32,000 bases of DNA, taken from NCBI RefSeq assembly GCF_000013905.1, contig NC_007969.1, forward strand, positions 1,590,001 through 1,622,000. The letters run 5' to 3'. The notes under the pieces are model-generated. The model had not been told where the DNA came from, made no database searches, and worked only from the letters and a program-made list of their open reading frames with translations. Of the stretch, positions 6,414 through 32,000 are shown piece by piece; position 1 is the first letter of the stretch; the number at the start of each line of letters is the position of its first letter. Source of the DNA: Psychrobacter cryohalolentis K5 (GTDB taxonomy: Bacteria; Pseudomonadota; Gammaproteobacteria; Pseudomonadales; Moraxellaceae). The position numbers and the translations under genes were made by a program.

Positions 6414-6674
6414 TTAATAATGATAGCGAGAAGAGATAATCGTCAGATAGTTATCATCGACGGCATATACCAACCGATTGGCATCATCGATGCGTCTTGA
6501 CCAAAATCCGGATAGATTTTCTTTTAGGGGTTCAGGTTTACCAATGCCTTCAAACGGATTACGCTTACATTCGGTGATGAGTTTGTTAACACGTTTGAGT
6601 GTTTTTTTGTCTTGTGTTTGCCAGTACAGATAGTCTTTCCACGCAGCATCTGTCCATGCTAGTTGCTCACTCAT
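6414..6674 (-). CDS. yoeB: Type II toxin YoeB/Txe (ribosome-dependent mRNA interferase)
   Basis: From the ATG at 6674 (MSEQLAWTDAAWKDYLYWQTQDKK...PFEGIGKPEPLKENLSGFWSRRID..RLVYAV...RYHY) it is colinear with E. coli YoeB, including the C-terminal RYHY. The track start at 6713 is a TTG overlapping the antitoxin stop. I prefer the internal ATG. Confidence 0.9.
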   Translation of the reverse strand: MSEQLAWTDAAWKDYLYWQTQDKKTLKRVNKLITECKRNPFEGIGKPEPLKENLSGFWSRRIDDANRLVYAVDDNYLTIISSRYHY

Positions 6675-6709
6675 TATTAGACCCTTTGCATTGATTAAAG
6701 CCTTTGAGT

Positions 6710-7036
6710 TCAAGCATTCTCAACGTCGCCATTCGTATGCTCATTGTCATCGCTGCTACCATCACTTTTATCACTGCCTTCTGCGGTATCAATTAGCTCA
6801 CGCGTAACAGTCTTGCCAGCTTTATATTGGGCAATAGATTCCGCTAAGTGCGCCGCATTGGCAGGAGATCTTAATAGATAGACGGTTTCCATCAGGCTAT
6901 TGTAATAATCAAGCGACATGACAACCGCATCATCAGCGTCACGACGGGTCACGATAGTGGCGTTGGCATCATCGTTTACCGTATCTAGGACGGACTTTAA
7001 GTGCTTTCTGGCTTCTGAAAAACTAATGACTCTCAC
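6710..7036 (-). CDS. yefM: Type II antitoxin YefM/Phd family with an acidic C-terminal extension
   Basis: VRVISFSEARKHL...VVMSLDYYNSLMETVYLLRSPANAAHL is colinear with E. coli YefM (MRTISYSEAR...). I place the start at GTG 7036 because GGAG (7043-7046) lies 6 nt upstream. The alternative ATG at 7048 has no SD and lies 5 nt from the operator. The C-terminus carries about 25 extra acidic residues. Confidence 0.85.
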   Translation of the reverse strand: MRVISFSEARKHLKSVLDTVNDDANATIVTRRDADDAVVMSLDYYNSLMETVYLLRSPANAAHLAESIAQYKAGKTVTRELIDTAEGSDKSDGSSDDNEHTNGDVENA

Positions 7037-7052
7037 GACATACTCCATAACT

Positions 7053-18341: not shown

Positions 18342-19004
18342 TTAGCCTTGTAGCTGGTCAATCATACCTTGGTATTTGTCTTTTTTCTCAGCAATCTTAC
18401 TACGCTCTTCTTCTGCATTGTCTACCGATTCTTCAGAGTCTGCCACTTTCTTATCAAAAGCTTCTAACTCGGCAGTTTTGGCATCCAAAAGTCTGTTAAG
18501 CATAATAGCAACCGCTTTTTCAGAAACGTCAAGCGTCATATTAGAAGCTTCAGACGTAAAATCCTCTTTAAGCTTAGCAGCCCATTGATAGATATTAGCT
18601 ATCGTCGCACTATGCTTGTCCTCATGCTTGTCTTCATTTTCAGAATCAGACTTATCCTCTTCGTCAGATTTCGCTTCTTTTTTGTCAGAAATAAAGTCAT
18701 CTTTGAGCTTAGAAGCCCATTGATAGATGTTCGCTATCGTCGTACTGTGCTTATCTTCTTTGGCAGAATTGTCATCTTGATCGTCTTTATTGGACTCATC
18801 ATCCTTGCCAGACTTAGTTTCTTCATCAACCTCATAGTCTTTGTCAGCATTGTAATCTTCAAAATCACCGTCTTCATAAACGACAGTATCACCTTTTACT
18901 ACTTCTACGCCTGTTACCGCATCATTTGAAGGCGTTGTCGCTGCGCTCTCAAGAGACTCTAAGGCATTTTTAATGTTATCGTTATTAGTAGACTTGTCAG
19001 ACAT
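18342..19004 (-). CDS. Highly acidic hypothetical protein with two internal repeats and a coiled-coil-like C-terminus
   Basis: 220 aa and rich in D/E/K. EDKHSTTIANIYQWASKLKDDF (18693-18758) and EDKHSATIANIYQWAAKLKEDF (18558-18623) repeat with a 45-aa period. The gene has its own terminator. I recognise no family. Confidence 0.7.
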   Translation of the reverse strand: MSDKSTNNDNIKNALESLESAATTPSNDAVTGVEVVKGDTVVYEDGDFEDYNADKDYEVDEETKSGKDDESNKDDQDDNSAKEDKHSTTIANIYQWASKLKDDFISDKKEAKSDEEDKSDSENEDKHEDKHSATIANIYQWAAKLKEDFTSEASNMTLDVSEKAVAIMLNRLLDAKTAELEAFDKKVADSEESVDNAEEERSKIAEKKDKYQGMIDQLQG

Positions 19005-19130: not shown

Positions 19131-19538
19131 TTAAACAACTTCCATTTCTAATAGTGTTGTAGATGACGCTTCTAACTGATCATATTTTATCACCACATTA
19201 TTACCTTCAAGACTGGTATCAAGCTCAACATGGTAAGTAGCAAGCGTGACACTTGTATCATCCAAGCATTGACCGGTGGCAAGGTTAAATCTCTGTTTAT
19301 AAATAGGTGAGGCCACATACAGTACCGCTTCATCAGTGCCAGCATCGTTGGTCACGGTAGTGCCTCCAATTAACCCTCTAGATAATACATTGGCCTGACT
19401 AAACGGGTCATAGTTATCAAGCGCGAACAGCTTAGCGTCCTTAGTGCGAAAGATAGCCACTTGTTTACCCTCTATCAGTGCGCAAACACCAGTCTCAGGG
19501 AGTATGTCTTCTAATCTGCAAACGGTATACTGGTTCAT
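19131..19538 (-). CDS. nirD: Nitrite reductase [NAD(P)H] small subunit
   Basis: EDILPETGVCALIEGKQVAIFR...DPFSQANVLSRGLIG...VASPIYKQRFNLATGQC is colinear with E. coli NirD. It lies directly downstream of nirB. About 25 aa longer than E. coli NirD. Confidence 0.85.
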   Translation of the reverse strand: MNQYTVCRLEDILPETGVCALIEGKQVAIFRTKDAKLFALDNYDPFSQANVLSRGLIGGTTVTNDAGTDEAVLYVASPIYKQRFNLATGQCLDDTSVTLATYHVELDTSLEGNNVVIKYDQLEASSTTLLEMEVV

Positions 19539-19583: not shown

Positions 19584-22211
19584 TTAAGCCAGCTCAGTCA
19601 CTAAGATTTTAGCTTTTTCACTATCGGTCGCAGGGCGGATCTGCTCGCGCTCGGTGACAAAAACCACATTGTCATCCCCTTGCTCACTATTGACGAAGTG
19701 ACGGAAACGTTTGAGCTTTTCGCTATCGGTTATAGTTGCTTTCCACTCACACACATAGTTGTCGATCAGCAGTTGCATCTGCGCCTCTAGCTCATCAGCG
19801 ATGCCTAAACTGTCTTCAATAATGACCGCTTGTAGATATTCCAATCCGCCATCTAAGCTCTCACGCCATTTTGAGGTACGCTGGAGTTTATCTGCTGTTT
19901 TGATATAAAACATGATAATACGGTCGATGTATTTGATGACCGTGTCGCTATCAAGGTCGGTGGCAAACAACTCACCATGACGCGGGGTCATACCACCATT
20001 ACCACAGACAAATAAATTCCAACCATTCTCAGTGGCGATAATGCCAAAGTCCTTGCTTTGTGCCTCTGCACACTCGCGTGTACATCCGGACACGCCCATC
20101 TTTATCTTATGCGGTGAACGTACTCCTTTATAACGATCCTCTAAGGTGAGTGCCAAGCCGACACTGTCATCGACACCGTAGCGACACCAGTTGTTACCCA
20201 CGCACGATTTAACAGTACGCAACGACTTACCATAAGCGTGACCAGTCTCAAAGCCAGCTTGCACCAATTGTGTCCAGATATCAGGCAATTGGTCTAAACG
20301 TGCCCCAAATAGATCCACGCGTTGCCCACCTGTGATTTTGGTATACAAATTAAACTCTTTGGCGACTTGTCCGAGGATGATCAGCTTATCGGCGGTGATT
20401 TCACCACCCGGCACACGAGGTACGACAGAATAGGTGCCGTCTTTTTGGATGTTGCCCAGATAATAGTCATTGCTATCTTGCAACGGTGTCAGTTCAGGCT
20501 TGAGCACATAATCATTCCAGCATGAGGCCAAGATGGAGGCGACCGTAGGTTTGCAAATCTCACAGCCATGACCGTTACCATGCTCATCCAACAGAGCATC
20601 AAAGGTTCTAATACCATGGACACGAATCAAGCTATAGAGCTCTTGACGGGTATAGGCAAAGTGCTCACATAAGTCGTTATTGACCTCAAACCCAAGGGTC
20701 GTTAACTGGTAGCTTAAAGTGTCTTTCACCATAGGCGCACAGCCACCACATCCTGTACCTGCACTAGTACAAGACTTCACTTCGGCAATGGAGTACGCAC
20801 CGTTTTCAACCGCCGCGCAAATAGCCCCTTTGGTGACGTTGTAGCATGAGCAAATCGTTGCACTATCTGGTAAATTTTCTATACCCATTTTCGGTTTTTC
20901 AACGTTGGGTAGTATGAGGCTTTCAGGGTGGGCAGGTAGGTCGATGTCGTTGAGATATAGCTGTAATAGATTATTATAGTCTTCGGTATCACCGACCAAC
21001 ACCGCGCCAAGCAAGCGTTTGTTATCAGGCGTTGTGACCAATTTCTTATAAATGCCCTCAGCAGGGTTCTGGTACAAATAGCTCAAGCTGTCCGCGCTGT
21101 TGCCATGGGCGTCGCCAATACTACCAACATCGACGCCCATCAGTTTGAGCTTGGTGCTCATATCAGCGCCCGTAAAGGTTTGCGACTGATCTCCTGTGAT
21201 TTGTGCCGCGCAAATACTCGCCATGCTGTAGCCTGGTGCTACTAAGCCAAATATCTTGTTATCCCACACCGCGCATTCGCCAATAGCGTAGACATGCGCA
21301 GCATTGGTGCGGCATTGTTCGTCAATTAAAATACCACCTCGTGCACCTATCTCAATACCGCACTCAGGATTGTTTTTGATAATGCCATCTTGCGGACGAA
21401 TACCTGCACTAAAGACGATCATATCGGTGTCAAGCGAGGTATCATCGGTGAATTGCATGGTCAGCTGGCACGGATTCTCATTAAAGGTGCTCAGGTTTTT
21501 ATGTATGGCGTCGCTATTATCAATAATGGCTTGGGTATTCTTACCAGTTAATACTTTGACGCCAAGCGCCTCAATTTTTCGTTTTAAAATATCGCCGCCA
21601 GCCGCATCAAGCTGTACGCCCATCAATTGCGGAGCAAACTCTACCACATAAGTCTCTAGTCCTAAGGTGACCAGTGCTTTTGCTGCTTCAAGCCCGAGTA
21701 GTCCTCCGCCCACAACTACGCCTCTTTTTACTTTTGGTTGCTCAGCGATGGCAAGAATGTCATCCAAATCAGCAATGGTGCGATATACATGACAGTGTGC
21801 ATGCTCACGCCCTGGAATCGGCGGTACAAATGGATAGGAGCCTGTCGCCAGCACCAGCTCACCATATTCAATCCGCTCGCCAGCTTCAGTGATGATGTAT
21901 TGATTGGTGGTGTCAATATCTACAATACGCTGGTTCAGATGCAATTGAATCTGGGCAGATGCATAGGCGCTTAAATCAACCAAGTTGAGCTTACTAACAT
22001 CTTTATGTTCAAAGTAGCTCGATAAATATACCCGATCGTAAGCGGGACGGTCTTCTTCAGCAAACACATGAATCTCAAACTGCTCATGTAACCCTTTTTC
22101 TATGGCTCGCTCAACGAAATGGTGCCCGACCATACCGTTACCAATCACCACCAACTTAGCTTTACCTGCCTTACTCACTATAGTGCTACTCATGTAATTA
22201 TCCTTAGTCAT
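19584..22211 (-). CDS. nirB: Nitrite reductase [NAD(P)H] large subunit (siroheme/[4Fe-4S]/FAD)
   Basis: FAD and NAD Rossmann motifs (VVIGNGMVGHH, VVVGGGLLGLEAA, YAIGECA). A BFD-like 2Fe-2S region (CSCYNVTKG...GTGCGGC). Siroheme/Fe-S cysteines (CVGNNWCRYG, SGCTRECAEA). The likely true start is the internal ATG at 22193, which has AAGGA 7 nt upstream. The first ATG at 22211 has no SD. Confidence 0.92.
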   Translation of the reverse strand: MTKDNYMSSTIVSKAGKAKLVVIGNGMVGHHFVERAIEKGLHEQFEIHVFAEEDRPAYDRVYLSSYFEHKDVSKLNLVDLSAYASAQIQLHLNQRIVDIDTTNQYIITEAGERIEYGELVLATGSYPFVPPIPGREHAHCHVYRTIADLDDILAIAEQPKVKRGVVVGGGLLGLEAAKALVTLGLETYVVEFAPQLMGVQLDAAGGDILKRKIEALGVKVLTGKNTQAIIDNSDAIHKNLSTFNENPCQLTMQFTDDTSLDTDMIVFSAGIRPQDGIIKNNPECGIEIGARGGILIDEQCRTNAAHVYAIGECAVWDNKIFGLVAPGYSMASICAAQITGDQSQTFTGADMSTKLKLMGVDVGSIGDAHGNSADSLSYLYQNPAEGIYKKLVTTPDNKRLLGAVLVGDTEDYNNLLQLYLNDIDLPAHPESLILPNVEKPKMGIENLPDSATICSCYNVTKGAICAAVENGAYSIAEVKSCTSAGTGCGGCAPMVKDTLSYQLTTLGFEVNNDLCEHFAYTRQELYSLIRVHGIRTFDALLDEHGNGHGCEICKPTVASILASCWNDYVLKPELTPLQDSNDYYLGNIQKDGTYSVVPRVPGGEITADKLIILGQVAKEFNLYTKITGGQRVDLFGARLDQLPDIWTQLVQAGFETGHAYGKSLRTVKSCVGNNWCRYGVDDSVGLALTLEDRYKGVRSPHKIKMGVSGCTRECAEAQSKDFGIIATENGWNLFVCGNGGMTPRHGELFATDLDSDTVIKYIDRIIMFYIKTADKLQRTSKWRESLDGGLEYLQAVIIEDSLGIADELEAQMQLLIDNYVCEWKATITDSEKLKRFRHFVNSEQGDDNVVFVTEREQIRPATDSEKAKILVTELA

Positions 22212-22360
22212 GGGTTTGTCTAAATAGTGCTTACAGTAATTACATCTTCAATAACTGTGCCAAGCACCGTTATATAGCGCCATATCTTTAAGCGAGAGTC
22301 TCATCACTACAGACGAAAAACCTGACGATGACAGTGTATTTCCTAGGCAGCGTGGTATGT

Positions 22361-22423
22361 GTGAGGATATAAATAGCAATGATAAATAAAAAAGTCTTTT
22401 CTCATTAAAAGTGAGGATATAAA
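22361..22423. repeat. Two exact copies of GTGAGGATATAAA, 50 bp apart, in the nirB/nas control region
   Basis: Copies at 22361-22373 and 22411-22423. Function unknown. Confidence 0.5.
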
Positions 22424-22429
22424 AAATGG

Positions 22430-22460
22430 ATGCACCAAAATAGATAAAACCATGCACCAA
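22430..22460 (+). promoter_or_regulatory. Two direct ATGCACCAA repeats (NtrC-type TGCACCA half-sites), 22 bp apart: candidate upstream activator sequence
   Basis: Copies at 22430-22438 and 22452-22460, about 185-210 bp upstream of the sigma-54 promoter. Only half-sites match the remembered TGCACC-N5-GGTGCA dyad, so this is weak. Confidence 0.3.
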
Positions 22461-22639
22461 TTTGATTGTATTTATGGCAGTCAGGGTTTTTCATTCATCT
22501 CGATAAAATTAGCGTTTCTATATGGCTATTAAATTATGAATGACCTTGTAATAGTTGCTTGGAAGTCAGCTATAGCAAAGCATGAACGCTTTTATCAAAG
22601 CCGAGGTTTTATCTGTATAACGAAGCTGATAGCGGCAGC

Positions 22640-22655
22640 TGGCACAGCCATTGCA
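22640..22655 (+). promoter_or_regulatory. Sigma-54 (RpoN) -24/-12 promoter for the nas operon
   Basis: TGGCAC-AGCCA-TTGCA matches TGGCAC-N5-TTGCW exactly, with correct GG/GC spacing. It lies about 97 nt upstream of the transporter ATG at 22753 (AAGGAA SD). Confidence 0.6.
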
Positions 22656-22752
22656 TCCCCTTAAATGCTCTAACTGGTCAGTTCGTTCAACATAACGTGT
22701 TCTTACGGCTTTCCATGTTAGCCCTGAATTTTACTATTTAAGGAAACCGCTT

Positions 22753-24264
22753 ATGTCGTCATCGCCATCACCGAGCCCTGCTGCACCAAATAAAAACAAG
22801 CTCAATATTCTCTCTTTTACTGGTAAAAACCAGATACTCCATCTTGGATGGATGGCTTTTTTTCTGACCTTTTTTGTATGGTTTAACCACGCACCATTCT
22901 TATCTGCCATCGGTGAGACTTTGAGTTTGACCAAGGACCAAGTCAAAACCTTATTGATACTAAACGTCGCTTTGACTATTCCAGCTCGAGTCATTATTGG
23001 CATGTTGACCGATCGTTTTGGTCCGCGCCTCGTCTATACCGCCATTTTGGCTATTGGAGCGATTCCCTGTTTTACCTTTGCCTTTGCGCAAGATTACAAC
23101 ACGCTGGCATTGTCCCGTTTTTTCTTGGGCTTTGTGGGTGCAGGGTTTGTGGTGGGTATTCGTCTCATGAGTGATTGGTTCCCTGCAAGTGAGCTGGGTA
23201 CTGCTGAAGGTATTTATGGCGGTTGGGGAAATTTTGGTTCTGCTGCTGCTGCGCTGCTGTTACCGACAGTGGCTATTATCGCCGCGGCTATAGTTGGTGG
23301 CAATGAGGGCTGGCGTTATGCAACAGCCACCTCAGGGGTGGTGATGATGCTCTATAGTGTGATTTTTTATAAGATGGTGCGTGATACGCCTAAGGGTGCG
23401 ACATATTTTAAACCCAAAAAGTCTGGTGCCATGATGGTGACTTCAGCAGGTGACTTTTGGCTGATGATGGCGTTTAAACTGCCAATGTATTTGGCGTTAG
23501 CGCTTTTGGGATGGAAGCTATCACCCGCTGGCGTCAGCTTACTCAGTCAGGCAAGTGTCAATATCGTCTACATCGGATTGGTTATTTTATATATTTATGA
23601 GTTTGTGAGTAGTTATCGCTTTAATAAAGAGGTATTTACGACTCCTGTGCCAAAAGCGCATCAATATGATTTTAAGCAAGTCGGTATCTTAAATATTTTA
23701 TACTTTGCGACCTTTGGCTCAGAGCTTGCCGTAGTGTCTATGTTGCCGCTTTTCTATCAAGAGACATTTAATCTATCAATTGTGATGGCAGGGGTTTTGG
23801 CATCTAGCTATGCGTTTATGAACTTGATGTCGCGACCGGGCGGCGGCTGGCTCAGCGATAAGTTTGGTCGCAAAATAACGCTGCTGATTTTGACCGCAGG
23901 TTTGGCTGTTGGTTATCTATTAATGGGCATCGTGGATTCAACATGGCCAATTGCCTTGGCATTATTCATCACGATGTTTTGCTCTTTCTTTGTACAAGCG
24001 GGTGAAGGTGCTGTGTTTGCGGTTATTCCACTGATCAAGCGTAGCATGACCGGACAATTTGCTGGCATGACCGGCGCTTATGGAAATGTTGGCTCGGTTG
24101 TTTATTTAACTGTATTGAGTCTGGTCTCTTATCAAGTATTCTTCATGGTAATCGCCGCGACTGCTGTCGTTGGCTTCTTTGCACTGTTCTTTTTAAAAGA
24201 ACCTGAAGGCGTTATCATCGAAGAGATGCCTGATGGCAGCTTTGCCCAAATTAAAGTGAGCTAA
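22753..24264 (+). CDS. Nitrate/nitrite transporter (MFS, NNP/NarK family)
   Basis: 503 aa with about 12 TM helices. Both NNP signature glycine motifs are present (YGGWGNFGSAAA and TGAYGNVGSVVY). First gene of the nas operon. Confidence 0.9.
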   Translation: MSSSPSPSPAAPNKNKLNILSFTGKNQILHLGWMAFFLTFFVWFNHAPFLSAIGETLSLTKDQVKTLLILNVALTIPARVIIGMLTDRFGPRLVYTAILAIGAIPCFTFAFAQDYNTLALSRFFLGFVGAGFVVGIRLMSDWFPASELGTAEGIYGGWGNFGSAAAALLLPTVAIIAAAIVGGNEGWRYATATSGVVMMLYSVIFYKMVRDTPKGATYFKPKKSGAMMVTSAGDFWLMMAFKLPMYLALALLGWKLSPAGVSLLSQASVNIVYIGLVILYIYEFVSSYRFNKEVFTTPVPKAHQYDFKQVGILNILYFATFGSELAVVSMLPLFYQETFNLSIVMAGVLASSYAFMNLMSRPGGGWLSDKFGRKITLLILTAGLAVGYLLMGIVDSTWPIALALFITMFCSFFVQAGEGAVFAVIPLIKRSMTGQFAGMTGAYGNVGSVVYLTVLSLVSYQVFFMVIAATAVVGFFALFFLKEPEGVIIEEMPDGSFAQIKVS

Positions 24265-24266
24265 GC

Positions 24267-26369
24267 ATGAAAAAGGGCAGCACACAAGACTTTAAGACCA
24301 CTGACAAAACCAGTCGCCATAGTGCGGATAATGCACTGTGGCAGCTTGATTTTCATAGCATGCAAGGGCGCAAGTCTGAAAATCAAGACAGCTTGCTGAT
24401 AACAACCTGCTTGCCGTATGGACAGTTTACAGCAACCATCAACGGCGGTGTTCAGTGTCCTCACGCGCCTTTATTGGTTTTAATGGCTGATGGTGTCAGT
24501 GCCTGTCAGTTCCCCAAACAAGCCAGCCAATTGGTGGTCAATACTGTCACGCACCATCTTACCTTAGCACTTAAAAACGGGGCACTTAAAAATGAAGCAA
24601 TTGAAGAGATGGTATTGGCAGAGAACCAATCGCAATCAGCAAACATAGACTTTGATGACAATCAAGTTGCCATTTTGATTCGTGAGGCGGTCAATAAAGC
24701 CAATGACGCCCTCTATTTCCCGCAAGTCTATGAGCGCGTGCCACCACTATTATCCACCTTATCAGGTCTACTATGTATCGGCGACCGTATCCATCTGTTT
24801 CATACAGGCGACTCGCGTATTTACCGTGTCGGTTTAGAGAGTATAAAAGTGCTCAGTAAAGACCACCGTATTCACCATGGGCAAGATAAAGGCGCGCTAT
24901 CTGCCGCTATTGGCGCGGATACGATGGTCGAGCTCCAGCAGTCAGTATTTACCTTGCATCAAAATGAATGCTTAGCACTGATGACAGATGGCGTCTATGA
25001 GTCTATTGCAGCGTCCGAGCTCCAGTTTGAGCTATGTTCAGCAGTAAAGGCGCTGTGTCAGCCGAGTCAAACGATAGATACGACGGATAACAGCTCGAAT
25101 GACGGGGCAGTGAATAGTCTTAGCATCAGCCAAAGCATATGCGAGCAGGCGTTTAACGAGGGCAGTCATGACAATTTAAGTATGGTGATACTCGGTATGA
25201 ATGCGCAAGCGCTCCATAAGAAAAAGACAGCCAATAGCGCTCATACTAAGAACAATAGTAATAATAAAAATGCTAGCCTGCATGATCCGATGCCTCACGA
25301 CATCCATCGGTATCAGTTATTAACGGGCTTAGAAGTTGGGGCACGGATTGATGGTTTTATCGTCAAGCATATTATAGCCCGTACTGCTCGTAGCGAAGTA
25401 TATCTAGTAGAGGATGAAAACCATCATCTATTTGCACTAAAGTCACCAAGCCTTAATGCTATTACCGATGGTCATTATCTGCGCGAATTTTTAAAGGAGC
25501 GTAAAATCGGTCTAAGCTTATCTAAGCATAGACGGGCGGGCGAGCCTGCCTATAATCAAGCAGATCCTAATAACCTATCTAGCGACAGCAGCCTTACAGG
25601 CATCAGCAGTATAAAACCCTATCTAGACGCAAGCTCAGCGCTTAGTGCTTCAGGGTTGCTACGCTATTACCCCATACCAGCCAGCAGTGCATATCTATAC
25701 CATCTCACAGAATATATTGAAGGCGAAAGCCTAAGAGATTTTATGGATCGTCATGCGCCTTGTGATGTGTGGCAGACCTATGATTTGTTAACCAAAATAG
25801 GCATGGCGGTTCGGGTGATGCATCGAAACTATCTATTGCATCAAGATATCAAGCCGGAAAACATCCTATTGACCACATCAGGCGCGGTCAAATTGATAGA
25901 TTTTGGTTCAGCCAGCTCTTCCATACTTAAAGACAGTACGCGACCACCGAACGGTGATTTGCACTATGCTGCACCAGAATATTACACCGATGCACCAAAA
26001 GGTGTGCATTCTGATTTATTTTCCATAGCGGTGATTGGCTATGAGCTGCTAACAGGTGAGCTGCCATTTAGCTCGCAAGCGTTGATGCATTCACATCAAG
26101 CAAATCATACCTTAACCCTACCTACTCAATTATTACGTCAGTACCGTGTACCTGCTGCCAGCCAGCAAGCGCTAATGCGTGCGCTGCTTGCTAATACCCA
26201 AGCTCGCTATCAAGCAATTGGTGAGTTCTTACAAGATTTTAACCCTGAGAATCATAATTATATTAGCGACCCTGAGCCGCTCATCATACGCAACCCATTA
26301 CTGGTATGGCATAGCATTTGCTTTATTCAGTTTGTGCTCATTTTTTCGCTGTTGGCTTATTTCTTATAA
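24267..26369 (+). CDS. Bifunctional PP2C-type Ser/Thr phosphatase / Hanks-type Ser/Thr kinase with a C-terminal membrane anchor
   Basis: PPM motifs: GRKSENQDS, LMADGVSA, HTGDSRIYRV, LSKDH, LMTDGVYE, HDNLSMVILG. Kinase motifs: FALK, catalytic loop HQDIKPEN (25839-25862), DFG (25899-25907), AAPE. The C-terminal helix is LLVWHSICFIQFVLIFSLLAYFL. The ATG lies 2 nt after the transporter stop. Confidence 0.85.
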   Translation: MKKGSTQDFKTTDKTSRHSADNALWQLDFHSMQGRKSENQDSLLITTCLPYGQFTATINGGVQCPHAPLLVLMADGVSACQFPKQASQLVVNTVTHHLTLALKNGALKNEAIEEMVLAENQSQSANIDFDDNQVAILIREAVNKANDALYFPQVYERVPPLLSTLSGLLCIGDRIHLFHTGDSRIYRVGLESIKVLSKDHRIHHGQDKGALSAAIGADTMVELQQSVFTLHQNECLALMTDGVYESIAASELQFELCSAVKALCQPSQTIDTTDNSSNDGAVNSLSISQSICEQAFNEGSHDNLSMVILGMNAQALHKKKTANSAHTKNNSNNKNASLHDPMPHDIHRYQLLTGLEVGARIDGFIVKHIIARTARSEVYLVEDENHHLFALKSPSLNAITDGHYLREFLKERKIGLSLSKHRRAGEPAYNQADPNNLSSDSSLTGISSIKPYLDASSALSASGLLRYYPIPASSAYLYHLTEYIEGESLRDFMDRHAPCDVWQTYDLLTKIGMAVRVMHRNYLLHQDIKPENILLTTSGAVKLIDFGSASSSILKDSTRPPNGDLHYAAPEYYTDAPKGVHSDLFSIAVIGYELLTGELPFSSQALMHSHQANHTLTLPTQLLRQYRVPAASQQALMRALLANTQARYQAIGEFLQDFNPENHNYISDPEPLIIRNPLLVWHSICFIQFVLIFSLLAYFL

Positions 26370-26449
26370 GTGCAGGCTTTAAGCACAAAAGATACTCTGA
26401 CACGCCATTTAATTAATGCTGCGCGTTGCGGCTAAGGGATTTTTTGCTC

Positions 26450-27880
26450 ATGTCATCAGATAGATCAAAATTAACAATACAGACAACGTCTTATGCTCAT
26501 TCAAATGCGGGTATTGTCATTATTGGTGCTGGCATGGCAGGCAGCCGTTTTGCCATTGAGCTGGCACGTGCCCAGCAGCAAAGTAAGTCGCCAAATAACC
26601 AAAGACCATTACCGATTACCCTTATCAGCAAAGAGCCAGAGGTTGGCTACAACCGCATTATGCTATCACCAGTGCTGGCAGGAGATAGCGCCTTTGATGA
26701 TACTTATTTATACCAGCAATCAGATTATGAACAGTTGGGTATTGTTGTCTTAGCAGGGATTGCAGTTACCGCTGTGGACACCAAACAACAGTCTATTAAT
26801 CTTGATAATGGACAGACGATGGTGTATGCCAAGCTGGTTATCGCTACAGGTTCGAGCGCTCGAGTCATCCCTTTTCCCAATCATGATGCGACAGGTGTGC
26901 ATGTGTTCCGAGAAGTAGCCGATGTAAATGCTTTAATTGAATATGCGCGCCAAGGGAAAAAAGGTCTAGTAATTGGTGGCGGGGTGCTAGGGCTAGAGGC
27001 CGCCTGCGCGTTGGCTTCTCAAGGGGCAGATATGACGGTCATTCATGTAGACAGCTATGTTCTTAACAGGCAGCTTGATTTACCTGCTGCCCAGCTACTG
27101 CAAGCTGAGCTGGCTCGTCGGGGCGTAGGTGTGGAGGTCTCTGCTATTACTGATTGTATTGCGGTCAATGACCAGCATGAGGTGAAAGGCTTATCATTGA
27201 AGGATGGACGTACCTTGCCGGCAGATTTTATCGTGATGGCAGTCGGGGTGATGCCCAATATAGCACTGGCGAGAGACAGCGGTCTTGAAGTCAATCGCGG
27301 CATCATTGTGGATGATTGCATGCACACGAGTTGTCCGCATGTCTACGCAGTTGGCGAATGCGTAGAGTTGGATGGTGAGCTATTCGGTATGGTCGCACCT
27401 GTTAATCAGCAAGTGGATACCTTAGTCTCTGTGCTAAAAGACACTCGACTATCGGGCGACAGCTTAGGCTCTAAAGAGAACTGGCAGCCTTTTCGCAGTA
27501 CACCGCTGTCATTAAAGCTAAAAGTATCTGGCATCAGTGCCTTTTCAGCAGGGCAAGTCGACTTTGATGACGAGGAAGCGGCGGCTATCGAAACCATTAC
27601 TTATCAGCAAACCAGTATAAATCACTATCACTGCCTCTATCTTAGAAACAATAAACTGATCGGCGCTGTACTCTACGGTGAGGTCAATGAGGGCAGTTTC
27701 TATAGCCAGCTGATCAACAGCAATAGTGATATCGCGCCTATAAAAGCGGATTTAATATTTGGCGAGGCTTACTGTGATTTGGAGAAGGTAACGACAGATA
27801 GTGAGGCTAACGGAGACATGGATAACGATAGCGATCTGGATTTATTAAGCGCAGCAGACCTAGTAGGAGCGGCGTCATGA
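26450..27880 (+). CDS. FAD/NAD(P)H-dependent oxidoreductase, probable electron-transfer subunit of the assimilatory nitrate reductase
   Basis: Paralogous to the NirB N-terminal flavin module (VIIGAGMAGSRFA, LVIGGGVLGLEAA, YAVGECV) but lacks the siroheme domain. It has an acidic C-terminal tail. Its stop overlaps the nasA start (ATGA at 27877-27880). I prefer ATG 26450 to the TTG at 26426. Confidence 0.85.
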   Translation: MSSDRSKLTIQTTSYAHSNAGIVIIGAGMAGSRFAIELARAQQQSKSPNNQRPLPITLISKEPEVGYNRIMLSPVLAGDSAFDDTYLYQQSDYEQLGIVVLAGIAVTAVDTKQQSINLDNGQTMVYAKLVIATGSSARVIPFPNHDATGVHVFREVADVNALIEYARQGKKGLVIGGGVLGLEAACALASQGADMTVIHVDSYVLNRQLDLPAAQLLQAELARRGVGVEVSAITDCIAVNDQHEVKGLSLKDGRTLPADFIVMAVGVMPNIALARDSGLEVNRGIIVDDCMHTSCPHVYAVGECVELDGELFGMVAPVNQQVDTLVSVLKDTRLSGDSLGSKENWQPFRSTPLSLKLKVSGISAFSAGQVDFDDEEAAAIETITYQQTSINHYHCLYLRNNKLIGAVLYGEVNEGSFYSQLINSNSDIAPIKADLIFGEAYCDLEKVTTDSEANGDMDNDSDLDLLSAADLVGAAS

Positions 27881-30800
27881 GTGAAGTGATCTTGAGTAAT
27901 AAACCGAATGCTAGTCAAGAATTAGAAAGTGGTATACTTCGATCTAATAACAAATCTGATGACATATTCAATCCTTCAAAAACGGCTCTTATTGCCACTT
28001 ATACTGAAGAAACGACGTCCATCATACGTACCACTTGCCCTTATTGCGGTGTCGGTTGCGGGGTGCTCGCGAGCATCGATGAGGTAGGTGCAGTCAGTGT
28101 GGCAGGCGACCCTGACCATCCGGCAAATTTTGGTAAGTTATGCTCAAAAGGCAGTGCATTGGCGCAAACCTTAGGCAGTGAGCGCCGCTTAACTGAGCCT
28201 TACTATCAAAACAAGCAAGCGGTAATGCAAGAACATCGACCCACGCAATTAGGTACTGATTTTAACGCTATCGACATATCTGATGAGCCACTTATAAAAC
28301 CTACCGATTGGAATAACGTCTTAGATGATATTGCCACGCGCTTAAACGACACGATCGCCAAGCATGGTCGCGACAGTATTATGTTTTATGTCTCAGGACA
28401 GCTACTCACTGAGGATTATTACGTCGCCAATAAGTTTATCAAAGGCTTTATCGGTAATAATAATATCGATTCCAACTCACGCCTATGTATGTCTTCCGCA
28501 GTAGCAGGGCATAAACGTGCCTTTGGCGCTGATTTGGTGCCTGGTAATTACGAGGATTTAGAGTCCTGCGATTTATTAGTGCTGGTTGGCTCAAACATGG
28601 CATGGTGCCATCCGATCTTATTTGGGCGTTTTTTGGCCGCCAAAAAAGCCAATCCCAATAAAAAGCTTATTGTCATTGACCCACGTCGTACCGATTCCTG
28701 TGAGTTCGCCGATTTGCACTTACCAATAGCCGCCGGCACCGATACGCATTTATACAATGGTTTATTACATTATCTTAGCGAACACGGCTGTGCTGATACA
28801 GGTTATATCGAGCATGGTCATGGTGTTGATGATGCTTTAGCGGCAGCCAACGTCTGGAGCATTGAAAAAGTTGCTCAAGCTTGCCAAGTCAGTATCGACA
28901 GTATCCTTGAATTTTATCAGCTAGTCGCCGCTCATGATGAAACAGTGACTGCCTTTAGTATGGGTGTCAACCAGTCAAAGAGTGGCACTGACAAGGTGAA
29001 TGCCATTATCAACACCCATCTGCTTACGGGACGAGTGGGCAAACCAGGTGCCAGTCCTTTTTCACTCACTGGTCAGCCAAATGCCATGGGTGGCCGTGAA
29101 GTCGGGGCGCTGGCTAATTTGCTGGCGGCACATTTAGACTTGAGTAATAGCATCCATCGTCAACTGGTGGCTGACTTTTGGCAGGCACCGCAGTCTATTG
29201 CGCCAGAGGTGGGCATCCAAGCTTGTGATGCTGCCGATGCTATCTTAGATGGGCGTATCAAAGCCATTTGGATTATGGCAACCAATCCAGTCGTGAGCTT
29301 ACCTGAAGCGGATAAATTTCGCCGCGCATTAGCGGCTTGTGACTTGGTCATTGTCTCTGACTGCTCGGTAGACAGCGATACGGTTAAGTGCGCAGACATT
29401 GTATTGCCAGCTCAAGGTTGGGGTGAAAAATCAGGCACAGTCACCAATTCTGAGCGGCGAATCTCAAGACAGCGGGCGTTGAAGCCTGCATTAGGACTCG
29501 CTAAGCCTGACTGGTGGATACTGTCTCAAGTGGCTACTCGCATGGGGCTAGCTGGGTTTGATTACCAGCATCCTAGCGAGATATTCAATGAGCATGTGGC
29601 ATTGACCGCTTATAAAAACGATCCTAGCCAAGTGCCCTCTATTAGCAATCAACCACGCTATCTCAATTTGGCTAAAGACCTATCAATGCCAGTACTAAGC
29701 CGCGCTGACTACGAGGTGATGACTCCCTTTCAATGGGGCGGTGCGCGTATTACACCCACTCAAGTAAAACTCATTGCTATTACGCCTTCAGATAGTGCTA
29801 GCCTGCCTAATTTTCATCACTTCCATCAACATCAACGTCGGCAGAACTCGAATAAGAGCGATGTTAAGAATAGAGATAAGCGGCATAACACTGACTTCAA
29901 CCCATTGACCGTGAATCTACGCCTGATTACGGGCAGACTACGAGATCAGTGGCATACCATGACACGCACAGGACTGGCGCCACAGCTCAATCAACATGAA
30001 TCTGTGCCGACGCTGACTATCCATCCTAATGAAGCCAAACAACTCGGTGTTGAAAAGGGCGACTATGTGCAGCTACATCCTCGCTATGAGCAGATCCTGC
30101 CGAATAGTGAGGCGACAACTATTGATACGAATAATGTTAGTAAAAATGCCGATACAGATAATGAGAATATAGAGCAAACGGTTTTAGCGCAAATCGCCAT
30201 CAGCGATAGTATGCGTGTTGGTGATGCCTTTATGCCCATGCACTGGAGTAATGCCTTTGCTAGCTTTGCACGGGTAGGGACACTCATTCCGACTGTGGTC
30301 GATCCATATTCAGGGCAGCCTGAGCTAAAAAACTCAGCGATTCGCATGAGCGCCGTGCCTATGCAGACACTTGGCAAGATTATGGTGCATCCTGATTTGC
30401 AGGACACCATATTAGTGCACTTGCGTGCGATGACTGCTCATTTTAAGAAGGAAGCAATAGCGGGTGAGTCGCAAACAGCGTCTACAAACTTTGAGTTAAA
30501 TGGTGCGGGTTCGTCTCTCTCACTACCAGCGCTGACATGGAGTATCAGCAGGCAAGCCAATAGTGTGCTCATTACTCTTGCCAGCCCAGCCGAGCGCACA
30601 GCTAGGCAGTTGCTTGACCCTAAATTTTGGCAGCAGTTTATCGATGACTATCAAAAGTCTGTATCAGACAAGTGGTTGACTGGCAATGCCGACGATACTC
30701 TGACGGTTAATAGCGCTTTCACCTTGAGTAAACCAGAGAAGCAACTACGCTTTATCTCGACTCAGTCAGAGGTGAGGAACAAAGCATTAAATCATATATT

Positions 30801-31161
30801 GCCAAGTGATTCAGACTCTGCCGTACCTAGTGATCAGCTGCTATTAGCTATTTATTTTGCACCAAAATTGATGTATTTGCCTAGTACACATTGGCTTGAC
30901 AGCTGCTTTGCCAGTACCGCTGCCATACCAGTACAGCAGCGCTATAAATGGTTGCTGGCAGGTCGTCCAGCTACTGGCTATATCGATCCAGGTCCGTTGG
31001 TGTGCTCTTGTATGGCAGTCGGAGAAAACATCATCATCAATGCAATCGCCAAGCAGCAGTGCCATAGCGCACAATCAGTGGGCAAAGCGTGCCGTGCTGG
31101 TACCAATTGCGGCTCATGCGTGAGTCAAATCAATGCACTTATTGAGGAGCATGCGTCATAG
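27877..31161 (+). CDS. nasA: Assimilatory nitrate reductase catalytic subunit (Mo-bisMGD, N-terminal [4Fe-4S], C-terminal BFD-like [2Fe-2S])
   Basis: N-terminal CPYCGVGCGV...KLCSKG cluster, a long MopB-type domain, and C-terminal CSCMAVG...CRAGTNCGSC. At 1094 aa it is unusually long because of low-complexity inserts. Confidence 0.92.
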   Translation: MSEVILSNKPNASQELESGILRSNNKSDDIFNPSKTALIATYTEETTSIIRTTCPYCGVGCGVLASIDEVGAVSVAGDPDHPANFGKLCSKGSALAQTLGSERRLTEPYYQNKQAVMQEHRPTQLGTDFNAIDISDEPLIKPTDWNNVLDDIATRLNDTIAKHGRDSIMFYVSGQLLTEDYYVANKFIKGFIGNNNIDSNSRLCMSSAVAGHKRAFGADLVPGNYEDLESCDLLVLVGSNMAWCHPILFGRFLAAKKANPNKKLIVIDPRRTDSCEFADLHLPIAAGTDTHLYNGLLHYLSEHGCADTGYIEHGHGVDDALAAANVWSIEKVAQACQVSIDSILEFYQLVAAHDETVTAFSMGVNQSKSGTDKVNAIINTHLLTGRVGKPGASPFSLTGQPNAMGGREVGALANLLAAHLDLSNSIHRQLVADFWQAPQSIAPEVGIQACDAADAILDGRIKAIWIMATNPVVSLPEADKFRRALAACDLVIVSDCSVDSDTVKCADIVLPAQGWGEKSGTVTNSERRISRQRALKPALGLAKPDWWILSQVATRMGLAGFDYQHPSEIFNEHVALTAYKNDPSQVPSISNQPRYLNLAKDLSMPVLSRADYEVMTPFQWGGARITPTQVKLIAITPSDSASLPNFHHFHQHQRRQNSNKSDVKNRDKRHNTDFNPLTVNLRLITGRLRDQWHTMTRTGLAPQLNQHESVPTLTIHPNEAKQLGVEKGDYVQLHPRYEQILPNSEATTIDTNNVSKNADTDNENIEQTVLAQIAISDSMRVGDAFMPMHWSNAFASFARVGTLIPTVVDPYSGQPELKNSAIRMSAVPMQTLGKIMVHPDLQDTILVHLRAMTAHFKKEAIAGESQTASTNFELNGAGSSLSLPALTWSISRQANSVLITLASPAERTARQLLDPKFWQQFIDDYQKSVSDKWLTGNADDTLTVNSAFTLSKPEKQLRFISTQSEVRNKALNHILPSDSDSAVPSDQLLLAIYFAPKLMYLPSTHWLDSCFASTAAIPVQQRYKWLLAGRPATGYIDPGPLVCSCMAVGENIIINAIAKQQCHSAQSVGKACRAGTNCGSCVSQINALIEEHAS

Positions 31162-31259
31162 CTGTCTTATAACCGCCTTATGAAATACAACCAATTGATC
31201 AATATGGCATAGGGCTTGCACCGTATATTGCACTAACAGCATCATTAGGAGTCACCGTC

Positions 31260-32000
31260 ATGACGGATTCATCTGCCTTTATCGCAACACTACCTCCAAA
31301 CGATTTATCTAATAAAAAGTGTGTCGTCAATGCGCTAAACACGCCATTAAACAGAGCAGCTGCAAAAGTAGGCATTGTGCATTTAGTCGGTGCAGGCTCT
31401 GGTGATCCTGAGCTGCTCACACTAAAAGCTTTGCGAATCATGCAGCGCGCTGATGTGGTGCTTTACGATAGCCTAGTCTCAGAGGATATATTGGATATGT
31501 GCGAACCAACAGCGGAAAAGATATTTGTTGGTAAACGCCGAGCCAATCATGCGCTGCCGCAAGAAGGCATCAATGAGCTGTTGGTCAAGCACGCGCTGGC
31601 AGGTAAAACAGTTGTAAGACTCAAAGGCGGCGACCCTTTTATCTTTGGGCGCGGCGGAGAGGAGCTTCAAGAAGTGGTGCGCCATGGTATCTTTTTTGAA
31701 TCTATCCCTGGCATTACTGCCGCCAGTGCCGCTGCTAGTAGTGCAGGTATTCCATTGACGCATCGCGACCATGCGCAGGCAGTGAAGTTTGTAACGGCAT
31801 ATAAGAAATCAGGAGCGCCAAATAATAACTATGACGAGCATTTAGATAGCACCCAAACGGTTGTTTTTTATATGGGATTGCATCAGCTAGATGAATTGAC
31901 TGAAGGGTTGATAGCAGCGGGACGAGATAGCGCGACGCCTTTTGCGGTGATTAGCCATGCCAGCTTGCCCACGCAGCAACTGCTCATCGGCACGCTTGGT
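31260..32000 (+). CDS. cobA: Uroporphyrinogen-III C-methyltransferase (siroheme biosynthesis), 3-prime end beyond the window
   Basis: Absent from the ORF track because it has no stop in the window. Read by hand from ATG 31260 (TAGGAG SD 8 nt upstream): MTDSSAF...VHLVGAGSGDPELLTLKALRIMQRADVVLYDSLV...VRLKGGDPFIFGRGGEE...IPGITAA. The frame is open for 247 codons to position 32000. Confidence 0.88.
   Translation, partial: MTDSSAFIATLPPNDLSNKKCVVNALNTPLNRAAAKVGIVHLVGAGSGDPELLTLKALRIMQRADVVLYDSLVSEDILDMCEPTAEKIFVGKRRANHALPQEGINELLVKHALAGKTVVRLKGGDPFIFGRGGEELQEVVRHGIFFESIPGITAASAAASSAGIPLTHRDHAQAVKFVTAYKKSGAPNNNYDEHLDSTQTVVFYMGLHQLDELTEGLIAAGRDSATPFAVISHASLPTQQLLIGTLG

Follow-up and report, generated by a model that had tools for sequence, protein, structure and literature searches.

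We analysed a 32,000-nucleotide stretch of the Psychrobacter cryohalolentis K5 genome (contig NC_007969.1, positions 1,590,001 to 1,622,000; referred to here as the window), which carries a gene for a tail-anchored fusion of a PP2C phosphatase and a Hanks-type Ser/Thr kinase among genes for nitrate assimilation. The gene (24267..26369, + strand) encodes 700 amino acids and was assigned from the open reading frame (ORF) call, Pfam matches and database identity. An earlier note on this DNA, made from the sequence alone, had described such a fusion with a C-terminal transmembrane (TM) helix, starting 2 nt past the stop codon of a transporter gene and located ahead of nitrate reductase genes. The ORF, the Pfam matches, the motifs and the hydropathy profile confirm this description: the stop codon of the transporter gene lies at 24262-24264, the ATG of the fusion gene is at 24267, and the genes downstream are nasB and nasA by profile matches. 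The start codon is secure because there is no Met besides it ahead of residue 24, where the first conserved strand begins. The upstream gene, narK (22753..24264, + strand), encodes a 503-amino-acid nitrate/nitrite transporter of the NNP/NarK family within the major facilitator superfamily (MFS); it scores 329.8 bits against TIGR00886 (cut-off 311.7), also matches MFS_1 in Pfam, and is identical to ABE75101.1 of P. cryohalolentis.

The 700-amino-acid protein exactly matches ABE75102.1 / WP_011513654.1 / UniProt Q1QB51 from P. cryohalolentis K5, which is named "bifunctional protein-serine/threonine kinase/phosphatase" in RefSeq, and its closest 120 database clusters come from Psychrobacter throughout (58-93% identity). 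The gene is already annotated and functionally unstudied, and at this window it is an ordinary member of its family. A hairpin with an 11-bp stem (six G-C pairs) and a T-poor tail lies about 50 nt into the ORF (24316-24342, + strand); it was caught by our terminator scan, which returned as many such sites in the region as expected from shuffled sequence.

The PP2C (PPM) phosphatase domain spans residues ~24-312 (24336..25202, + strand) and was delimited from the Pfam match, residue conservation and a structural model. PP2C_2 (PF13672) matches residues 67-251 with 45.5 bits (cut-off 24). The characteristic motifs are found at residues 35-41 (RKSENQD), 74-78 (ADGVS), 181-184 (GDSR), 240-242 (TDG) and 302-303 (DN), and all four metal-binding aspartates of the PPM/PP2C class (D41, D75, D241 and D302) are present and conserved. 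In alignments of 61-90 family proteins, G34, N39, D41, D75, G76, G181, D182, R184, D241, G242, D302 and N303 are invariant or nearly so. The claim that the phosphatase motifs are complete is thus correct, and the metal ligands are conserved family-wide. The DGxGG motif of PP2C enzymes is replaced by a family-specific D-G-V-S-S-S. Searching the model against the PDB with Foldseek returned the PP2C folds of PppA, tPphA (2j82 and 2y09) and HAB1.

The Hanks-type Ser/Thr kinase domain occupies residues ~350-660 (25314..26246, + strand), as judged by PF00069, PDB matches, Foldseek and its catalytic residues. Pkinase (PF00069) matches residues 460-613 with 108.5 bits (cut-off 31.7), covering only positions 56-209 of the 263 in the profile. 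The kinase residues K392, E411, D527 and N532 are present, together with DFG at 545-547 and APE at 569-571. In the same set of alignments K392, E411, H525, D527, N532, D545, G547, A569, P570 and E571 are invariant or near-invariant. The only departures from a canonical kinase are the glycine loop and the Arg of HRD.

The earlier note had called this kinase atypical on account of a non-RD catalytic loop, a nucleotide-binding loop lacking glycines and a long Ser-rich insert, and all three features are present. The HQD motif, assigned by motif position, falls at residues 525-527 and at exactly the nucleotides that had been given for it (25839..25847, + strand). The loop IARTARSEV (residues 370-378; 25374..25400, + strand), placed by motif, alignment and model, occupies the usual site of GxGxxG and contains no Gly at all. 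In the AlphaFold2 model it is flanked by strands 364-372 and 376-382, with T373-A374-R375 forming the beta1-beta2 turn. Across the family the consensus of this loop is L-H-x-S-x-R-S-x-V-Y-L, in which R375 is kept in 87 of 90 sequences and S376 in 85 of 90; R375 is also invariant in one further family alignment. The middle residue of HxD is Q in 45 of the 90 sequences and R in 34, the remainder having G, C or L. On the evidence of these alignments, the lack of glycines in the nucleotide loop and the non-RD catalytic loop are conserved or polymorphic characters of the family and not signs of decay, in the case of the nucleotide loop because the replacement Arg-Ser is itself near-invariant. The word atypical therefore describes the family, and of the three features only the Ser-rich insert is specific to Psychrobacter. 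The conserved use of Arg-Ser where other kinases have a glycine-rich loop is of independent interest to enzymologists.

These departures bear on whether the domain is an active enzyme. It could be an inactive pseudokinase that serves as a scaffold or regulator of the fused PP2C domain, given that all three glycines of the nucleotide loop are gone, that HQD stands in place of HRD, and that the Pfam and PDB sequence matches (the latter to StkP and PknB) cover mostly the C-lobe, from about residue 460. However, the catalytic Lys, the alphaC Glu, the catalytic Asp and Asn, the DFG Asp and APE are invariant or near-invariant in ~60-90 divergent representatives, and the conservation of R375-S376 in the replacement loop argues for function over decay. 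The predicted structure points the same way: a full kinase fold including the N-lobe is modelled at high confidence and superposes on PknB. Pseudokinases are recognised by the loss of at least one of three residues, the Lys of VAIK and the Asp of HRD and of DFG; here all three (K392, D527 and D545) are retained, and they are conserved in the family. An inactive pseudokinase, which the earlier note had named as an outcome that would overturn its hypothesis, is thus not what the retained residues predict. We consider it very improbable that the protein is a pseudokinase of this kind, or alternatively that the gene is merely carried along and plays no part in nitrogen assimilation. Both catalytic domains are likely to be competent, their activity being predicted from the conserved residues. 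We also compared the protein with other kinase classes. Membership of the PASTA kinases (NF033483) was rejected, with 115.6 bits against a cut-off of 450 and a protein that stops at its TM helix, and so was a role in defence, as the NCBIfam scores for MADS6 (88 against 460 bits) and the PglW kinase (41 against 990 bits) are far under their cut-offs.

An AlphaFold2 model of the single chain, built from a 65-sequence alignment, has a mean predicted local distance difference test (pLDDT) score of 79, with the cores of both domains above 90 and a helix at residues 677-699. When the kinase domain was compared with the PDB using Foldseek, the matches were PknB, PknA and Stk1, with a TM-score of up to 0.84 (normalised to PknB) over ~305 columns. 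This superposition takes in the N-lobe that the sequence profiles missed, and the modelled domain has the bilobal kinase fold. The predicted template modelling (pTM) score of 0.51 means that the mutual arrangement of the PP2C and kinase domains is not defined by the model. Segments 1-21, 51-65, 269-283, 315-347 and 423-459 are predicted to be disordered. Residues 315-347 (25209..25307, + strand; pLDDT <50) form an Asn/Lys/Ser-rich linker between the two domains. Residues 423-459 (25533..25643, + strand; pLDDT <50) correspond to the Ser-rich insert, which lies between alphaC and beta4; the earlier note had placed it at about residues 415-470, and 14 of the 71 residues from 405 to 475 are serines. 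The long linker and the insert are confined to Psychrobacter, and members in other genera are ~570-600 amino acids long.

The protein ends with a conserved juxtamembrane motif followed by a C-terminal TM helix that would act as a tail anchor (26277..26366, + strand), as indicated by hydropathy, alignment and the model. The motif reads P-L-x-E/x-R-N-P-x-x-F/V-W-Q/H, with P677 and W681 near-invariant or invariant, and is kept together with the terminal helix in ~90 family representatives. According to the hydropathy profile, the only hydrophobic segment is at residues ~677-700, at the very end of the protein, so that there is no external domain.

To define the family we searched 1.84 billion cluster representatives exhaustively with HMMER and obtained 222 proteins at E <1e-30. 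About 90 of the best 150 matches are 540-650 amino acids long and share the same architecture, including the terminal TM helix and the motif P-L-x-E-R-N-P-x-x-F-W-Q. The Psychrobacter protein carries all of the family features, namely the PP2C domain, the kinase domain, the R-S loop, P-L-x-E-R-N-P-x-x-F-W-Q and the terminal helix. A profile search found members in Neptuniibacter, Marinobacterium, Amphritea, Azoarcus, Uliginosibacterium and Azospirillum, and also in Rhodopseudomonas palustris, Magnetovibrio, Methylomarinovum, Arcobacter and Sulfurimonas, all under generic database names. The family thus extends across Alpha-, Beta- and Gammaproteobacteria and Campylobacterota, and the gene in the window is the Psychrobacter member of a known, annotated and uncharacterised family. 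Family members are frequent among Proteobacteria of the sea and soil as well as among Campylobacterota, and these groups are important for nitrogen cycling.

To characterise the genomic context of the family, we listed 101 loci from two pattern-limited scans, which constitute a sample and not a census. The first scan covered one genome per GTDB species with a generic catalytic-loop pattern; ~60 of its 80 listed loci were unrelated kinases, which were set aside after motif checks, leaving 21 family loci. These come from genera including Sedimenticola, Pseudomaricurvus, Limnobacter, Methyloprofundus, Colwellia, Microbulbifer, Porticoccus, Thalassolituus, Marinobacter, Pseudomonas, Ramlibacter and Methylomonas, as well as from alphaproteobacterial metagenome-assembled genomes (MAGs). 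The second scan searched metagenomes with the family-specific pattern [FV]HxGDSR[IV]Y[RHL] and listed 80 further loci, on contigs without taxonomy. For the 90 listed loci with upstream sequence, the upstream gene on the same strand was classed by tblastn against Pfam-confirmed references.

A nitrate/nitrite transporter gene lies immediately upstream of the kinase/phosphatase gene, on the same strand, in 82 of these 90 loci. The upstream gene encodes a NarK-type MFS transporter in 51 loci, a Pseudomonas NasA-type MFS transporter in two, and a member of the formate/nitrite transporter (FNT) family in 27; in two more the order is FNT, cyanase, kinase. The remaining eight loci have another upstream gene, and comprise two with a divergent amt gene, two with a divergent MFS gene, one with a truncated gene and three orphans. 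Clustering the kinases at 90% identity left the pattern unchanged, with linkage in 73 of 81 clusters (45, 2, 24 and 2 in the same four classes, and 8 others). The gap between transporter and kinase has a median of 62 nt and is 10 nt or less in 13 of 77 cases. Three named genomes inspected individually, those of R. palustris, Azospirillum and Sulfurimonas aquatica, agree with this linkage, each with an FNT partner. Conserved linkage to nitrate genes, the absence of which the earlier note had regarded as fatal to its hypothesis, therefore holds in this sample. That this gene order is kept in Proteobacteria of the alpha, beta and gamma classes and in Campylobacterota also argues against the gene being a passenger.

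The partner transporter belongs to one of two unrelated superfamilies, as either a NarK-type MFS protein or an FNT channel. In a neighbour-joining tree of the kinases, those linked to FNT formed one clade nested among the NarK-linked kinases, and the Pseudomonas and amt-linked members formed another group. The nested FNT-linked clade suggests partner-specific co-evolution. Several FNT-linked loci also carry a cyanase (CynS) gene, with the order either FNT-CynS-kinase or FNT-kinase-CynS. This combination recurs in L017 (8674-11701), L129 and L162 (4607-7722, from Sulfurimonas aquatica, where the order is FNT-cyanase-kinase), and also in L111 and L143; in such loci the FNT partner may carry cyanate as well as nitrite. 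A second observation concerns NarK-linked metagenomic loci, many of which (L094, L099-L103, L121, L127, L135, L146, L149, L152 and L158) have a second, shorter NasA-like MFS gene (~420-440 amino acids) on the opposite strand, ~1.8-2.0 kb upstream of the kinase gene. In L088 such a NasA-like MFS gene adjoins an NnrS gene.

In the window, the fusion gene is followed by nasB and nasA. The nasB-like gene (26426..27880, + strand; its true start may be the ATG at 26451) encodes an FAD/NAD(P)H electron-transfer subunit of assimilatory nitrate reductase and was recognised from Pyr_redox_2, Rubredoxin_C and its likeness to the N-terminus of NirB. It overlaps by 4 nt with nasA (27877..31161, + strand), which by profile matches encodes a molybdopterin assimilatory nitrate reductase with a C-terminal BFD [2Fe-2S] domain. 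The placement of the fusion gene between narK and nasB/nasA in one apparent operon raises the possibility that the enzyme phosphorylates and dephosphorylates the reductases (NasB/NasA or NirBD), as happens to plant nitrate reductase, and the order transporter, kinase, nirB does recur in several loci (L007-L009, L014, L015 and L137). However, a nitrate or nitrite reductase gene is present in only 24 of the 53 listed loci that are flanked by 4 kb or more on each side, compared with ~91% of loci that have a transporter gene directly upstream, and soluble reductases need no membrane-anchored enzyme. Stand-alone FNT-kinase pairs also exist, as in R. palustris and Azospirillum, which have no reductase gene nearby. 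We consider reductases very improbable as the targets. The link to nitrate genes proposed in the earlier note is thus strongly conserved as far as the transporter is concerned, but the reductase is not a constant partner. The constant partner is the transporter.

We infer from this linkage that the transport step is implicated, since the same kind of enzyme is tied to two unrelated transporter superfamilies with the same substrates. The simplest account would be a switch that carries its own kinase and phosphatase and acts either on the adjoining transporter or by way of it. Our computations directly show the domain architecture, the retained catalytic residues of both domains, the membrane anchor, how the operon is laid out and the conserved gene linkage; we infer which protein is phosphorylated, in which direction this acts and what signal is sensed. 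In the mechanism that we propose, nitrogen limitation would activate a sigma-54 promoter (described below) to give one transcript of narK, the kinase/phosphatase gene, nasB, nasA and probably the cobA-like gene that follows. The C-terminal helix and the juxtamembrane motif would hold both catalytic domains at the cytoplasmic face of the inner membrane, beside the transporter. The kinase would then place phosphate on cytoplasmic Ser/Thr residues, either in the transporter itself or in a protein that binds to it, and the PP2C domain would remove it. The outcome would be a fast post-translational switch of uptake, driven by an intracellular signal of nitrogen status or of substrate. That the enzyme exerts direct post-translational control of nitrate/nitrite uptake is a reading that we favour tentatively and that falls a little short of probable. 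Held more guardedly still is its specific form, a two-gene module in which the glycine-free-loop kinase/phosphatase directly gates uptake by reversible phosphorylation of the co-encoded NNP-type MFS or FNT protein. If correct, such a direct-gating module would be a bacterial counterpart of the control of plant NRT2.1, and could be the missing mechanism for the rapid shut-off of nitrate uptake by ammonium in heterotrophic bacteria.

Several observations weigh against direct control of the transporter. We looked for a phospho-acceptor motif common to the NarK and FNT partners and found none. The central NarK loop TPKGSTYFKPK..EVTS is conserved among the partners, but it is also present in NarK paralogues that do not adjoin a kinase gene, and Pseudomonas NasA is without the TPKGSTYF loop. 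The conserved termini of the FNT partners are different again (MSYLxPxEF... and THVRTxP). The three orphan loci (L107, L144 and L156) have unrelated neighbours and no nitrogen gene nearby. In two alphaproteobacterial MAGs (L026, 7383-11371; L032, 7655-12841) the kinase gene lies beside a divergent amt, with glnA directly downstream in L032, which suggests that the family may serve nitrogen assimilation in a broader sense. The phosphate-binding loop without glycine leaves ATP-dependent kinase activity as a prediction from the other catalytic residues, and we found no phosphosite, interaction or phenotype for any family member in the literature. Finally, adjacency fits a transporter that acts as co-sensor equally well as one that acts as substrate.

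The co-sensor idea leads to a different explanation, namely that the kinase/phosphatase reads the occupancy of the transporter, its flux or a nitrogen metabolite, and phosphorylates a soluble regulator (a transcription factor, an antiterminator, NtrC or a PII-type protein) that sets nas expression. In Psychrobacter this would provide the nitrate-specific control that NasR or NasS/NasT supply elsewhere. Linkage to the transporter is accounted for as well as it is by direct control of uptake, and as the protein has no periplasmic domain an external signal would need a route through the transporter. The two members beside amt and glnA would suit a general role in nitrogen status, and the PP2C domain resembles tPphA, a cyanobacterial phosphatase that acts on PII. 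The window itself also lacks NasR or NasS/NasT genes and a terminator-type leader, as the earlier note had reported: no ANTAR, NIT or NMT1 domain was found among its ORFs, and the ~100-nt leader of the narK operon contains no terminator-like site, has no Rfam match and folds no better than shuffled sequences (z = -0.69). An antitermination system of the NasR or NasS/NasT type at the window was rejected on the absence of such ORFs and of a leader hairpin, and a leader-RNA mechanism (NasR/NasT type) for the narK operon was rejected on Rfam, the terminator scan and folding.

The wider sample does not fit simple replacement of these regulators. In Pseudomonas fluorescens, Pseudomonas brenneri and Microbulbifer, genes for NasS (NMT1_2) and NasT (ANTAR) lie just ahead of the transporter and kinase genes, and a NasS or NasT match is present in five of the 53 well-flanked loci. 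Mutual exclusivity between the fusion and NasS/NasT, which the earlier note had proposed to check, is ruled out by these shared clusters. Moreover, no candidate regulator gene is conserved beside the module in the loci compared, and the phospho-acceptor Ser49 of cyanobacterial PII is not known to be conserved in proteobacterial PII proteins, which are regulated by uridylylation. On balance we regard phosphorylation of a soluble regulator as unlikely, though it is the alternative that we take most seriously. Direct control of uptake, for its part, would add a post-translational layer on top of NtrBC/sigma-54 and of NasR or NasS/NasT antitermination, and would parallel the regulation of plant NRT2.1.

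The Pseudomonas linkage and the idea of transporter phosphorylation were already published in 2013, in the genome paper of Pseudomonas sp. UW4, which noted ppkB (PputUW4_03641) downstream of nasA and drew an analogy with phosphorylation in plants and yeast (PMC3596284). The hypothesis of reversible phosphorylation in the earlier note is thus backed by the architecture and by the conserved transporter linkage, but not with the reductase as a constant target, and it is not new. A Ser/Thr kinase gene in a nas cluster, which the note had mentioned for Pseudomonas aeruginosa, is present in UW4 (PMC3596284) and in the P. fluorescens and P. brenneri loci. A narT-protein kinase pair has been listed for P. 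pseudoalcaligenes (PMC5333837). In P. aeruginosa the corresponding gene, directly behind nasA, is PA1782, whose product is described only as a predicted kinase (PMC11197903, PMC8560001). In the full-text literature we found no functional study of any family member, only gene listings and one speculative remark (PMC3596284). What our analysis adds is the family-wide link to the transporter over the reductase, the reach of this link to FNT and, in two alphaproteobacterial loci, to amt/glnA, the refutation of NasS/NasT exclusivity, and the recognition that the "degenerate" loop is a conserved Arg-Ser signature. Few Gram-negative Hanks-type kinases have a known substrate, and here gene linkage names a specific candidate, the adjoining transporter. 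The module is a good, directly testable starting point for asking whether bacteria control nitrate uptake after translation.

We compared the protein with known systems. The Pseudomonas members (PA1782/ppkB-type) share the PP2C domain, the kinase domain, the C-terminal helix with P-x-x-V/F-W-Q, and the position behind a transporter gene in a nas cluster (L014 and L015, from P. fluorescens and P. brenneri). We take L014 and L015 to be orthologues of PA1782 on the basis of gene order. In contrast to the Psychrobacter protein, to which they are only ~23% identical, they have HRD, are ~590 amino acids long without the Ser-rich insert, gave no exact R-S loop match in the motif scan, and lie behind a shorter NasA-type MFS gene with NasS/NasT alongside.

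The PknB/StkP kinases of Gram-positive bacteria, with their phosphatases PstP/PhpP, have both catalytic folds, a single-helix membrane anchor and the pairing of a kinase with an antagonist phosphatase, and it is in StkP, PknB, PknA and Stk1 that the kinase domain finds its best matches by sequence and by structure. In those systems, however, the two activities reside in different proteins, and beyond its helix the kinase continues into extracellular PASTA sensor domains, whereas the window protein has both activities in one chain, a terminal helix, no external domain and no canonical glycine loop.

Plant NRT2.1, which belongs to the NNP family like NarK, is controlled by phosphorylation and a PP2C phosphatase. 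The window NarK falls in that family by its TIGR00886 match. By analogy, then, a nitrate transporter set by a Ser/Thr kinase, as in plant NRT2.1/NRT1.1 (CIPK23, PP2C) and yeast Ynt1 (Npr1), may have a bacterial equivalent. However, the plant and yeast enzymes are not orthologous to the fusion, and their kinase and phosphatase are separate, soluble and under calcium or peptide signalling; on the bacterial side the analogy is drawn from gene linkage. The cyanobacterial PII/PphA system quickly adjusts nitrate uptake to nitrogen status (PMC6603209), and the PP2C domain of the window protein matches the tPphA structures. PphA differs in being a stand-alone soluble phosphatase that acts on Ser49 of PII, with no fused kinase and no membrane anchor.

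The narK operon is preceded by a sigma-54-type -24/-12 promoter, TGGCACAGCCATTGCA (TGGCAC-N5-TTGCA; 22640..22655, + strand), 98 nt upstream of the narK start. No other site in the window matches TGGCAC-N5-TTGCW perfectly, and the element was overlooked in the earlier note. A second sigma-54-like element with one mismatch (22247..22262, - strand) faces the divergent nirBD genes in the shared nirBD/narK intergenic region (22212-22752). Of 79 related loci, 26, with NarK- and FNT-linked ones among them, also have a sigma-54-like element in the 450 nt that precede the transporter gene, compared with none of 79 for an in-gene control of equal length. These elements fit NtrC/sigma-54 control by nitrogen limitation, which has been described for nas operons (PMC10783516). 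Possible NtrC half-sites (TGCACCAAAA... and ATGCACCAAT) are located around 22430-22470 in the nirBD/narK intergenic region, and a third one-mismatch sigma-54-type element, TGGCATAGGGCTTGCA, is located at 31205-31220, just past the nasA stop and upstream of the cobA-like gene.

The gene that follows nasA, truncated by the end of the window (31260..32000, + strand; start approximate), is presumably a cobA/cysG-like uroporphyrin-III methyltransferase gene for siroheme synthesis, as judged from the motif VGAGSGDPELLTLKA in its translation. The Psychrobacter NarK begins with a Ser/Pro-rich extension, MSSSPSPSPAAPNKNK (residues 1-16, 22753-22800), that is not conserved in the NarK partners of other genera and is a possible lineage-specific phospho-acceptor region. 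The divergent genes for assimilatory nitrite reductase are nirB (19584-22211, - strand; NF011565, 1277 bits) and nirD (19131-19538, - strand; TIGR02378, 98.8 bits). Directly downstream of nirD, an ORF at 18342-19004 (- strand) encodes a very acidic, low-complexity protein of 220 amino acids with no Pfam or NCBIfam match, in which the sequence DKHSxTIANIYQWAxKLKxDFxS occurs twice as an internal duplication; this ORF may be co-transcribed with nirBD. The remainder of the window contains methylcitrate-cycle genes, a YoeB/YefM pair, a LysR regulator and unrelated genes. The YoeB toxin/YefM antitoxin pair (6414-7048, - strand) is inserted between prpF and acnD in the methylcitrate-cycle (prp) cluster.

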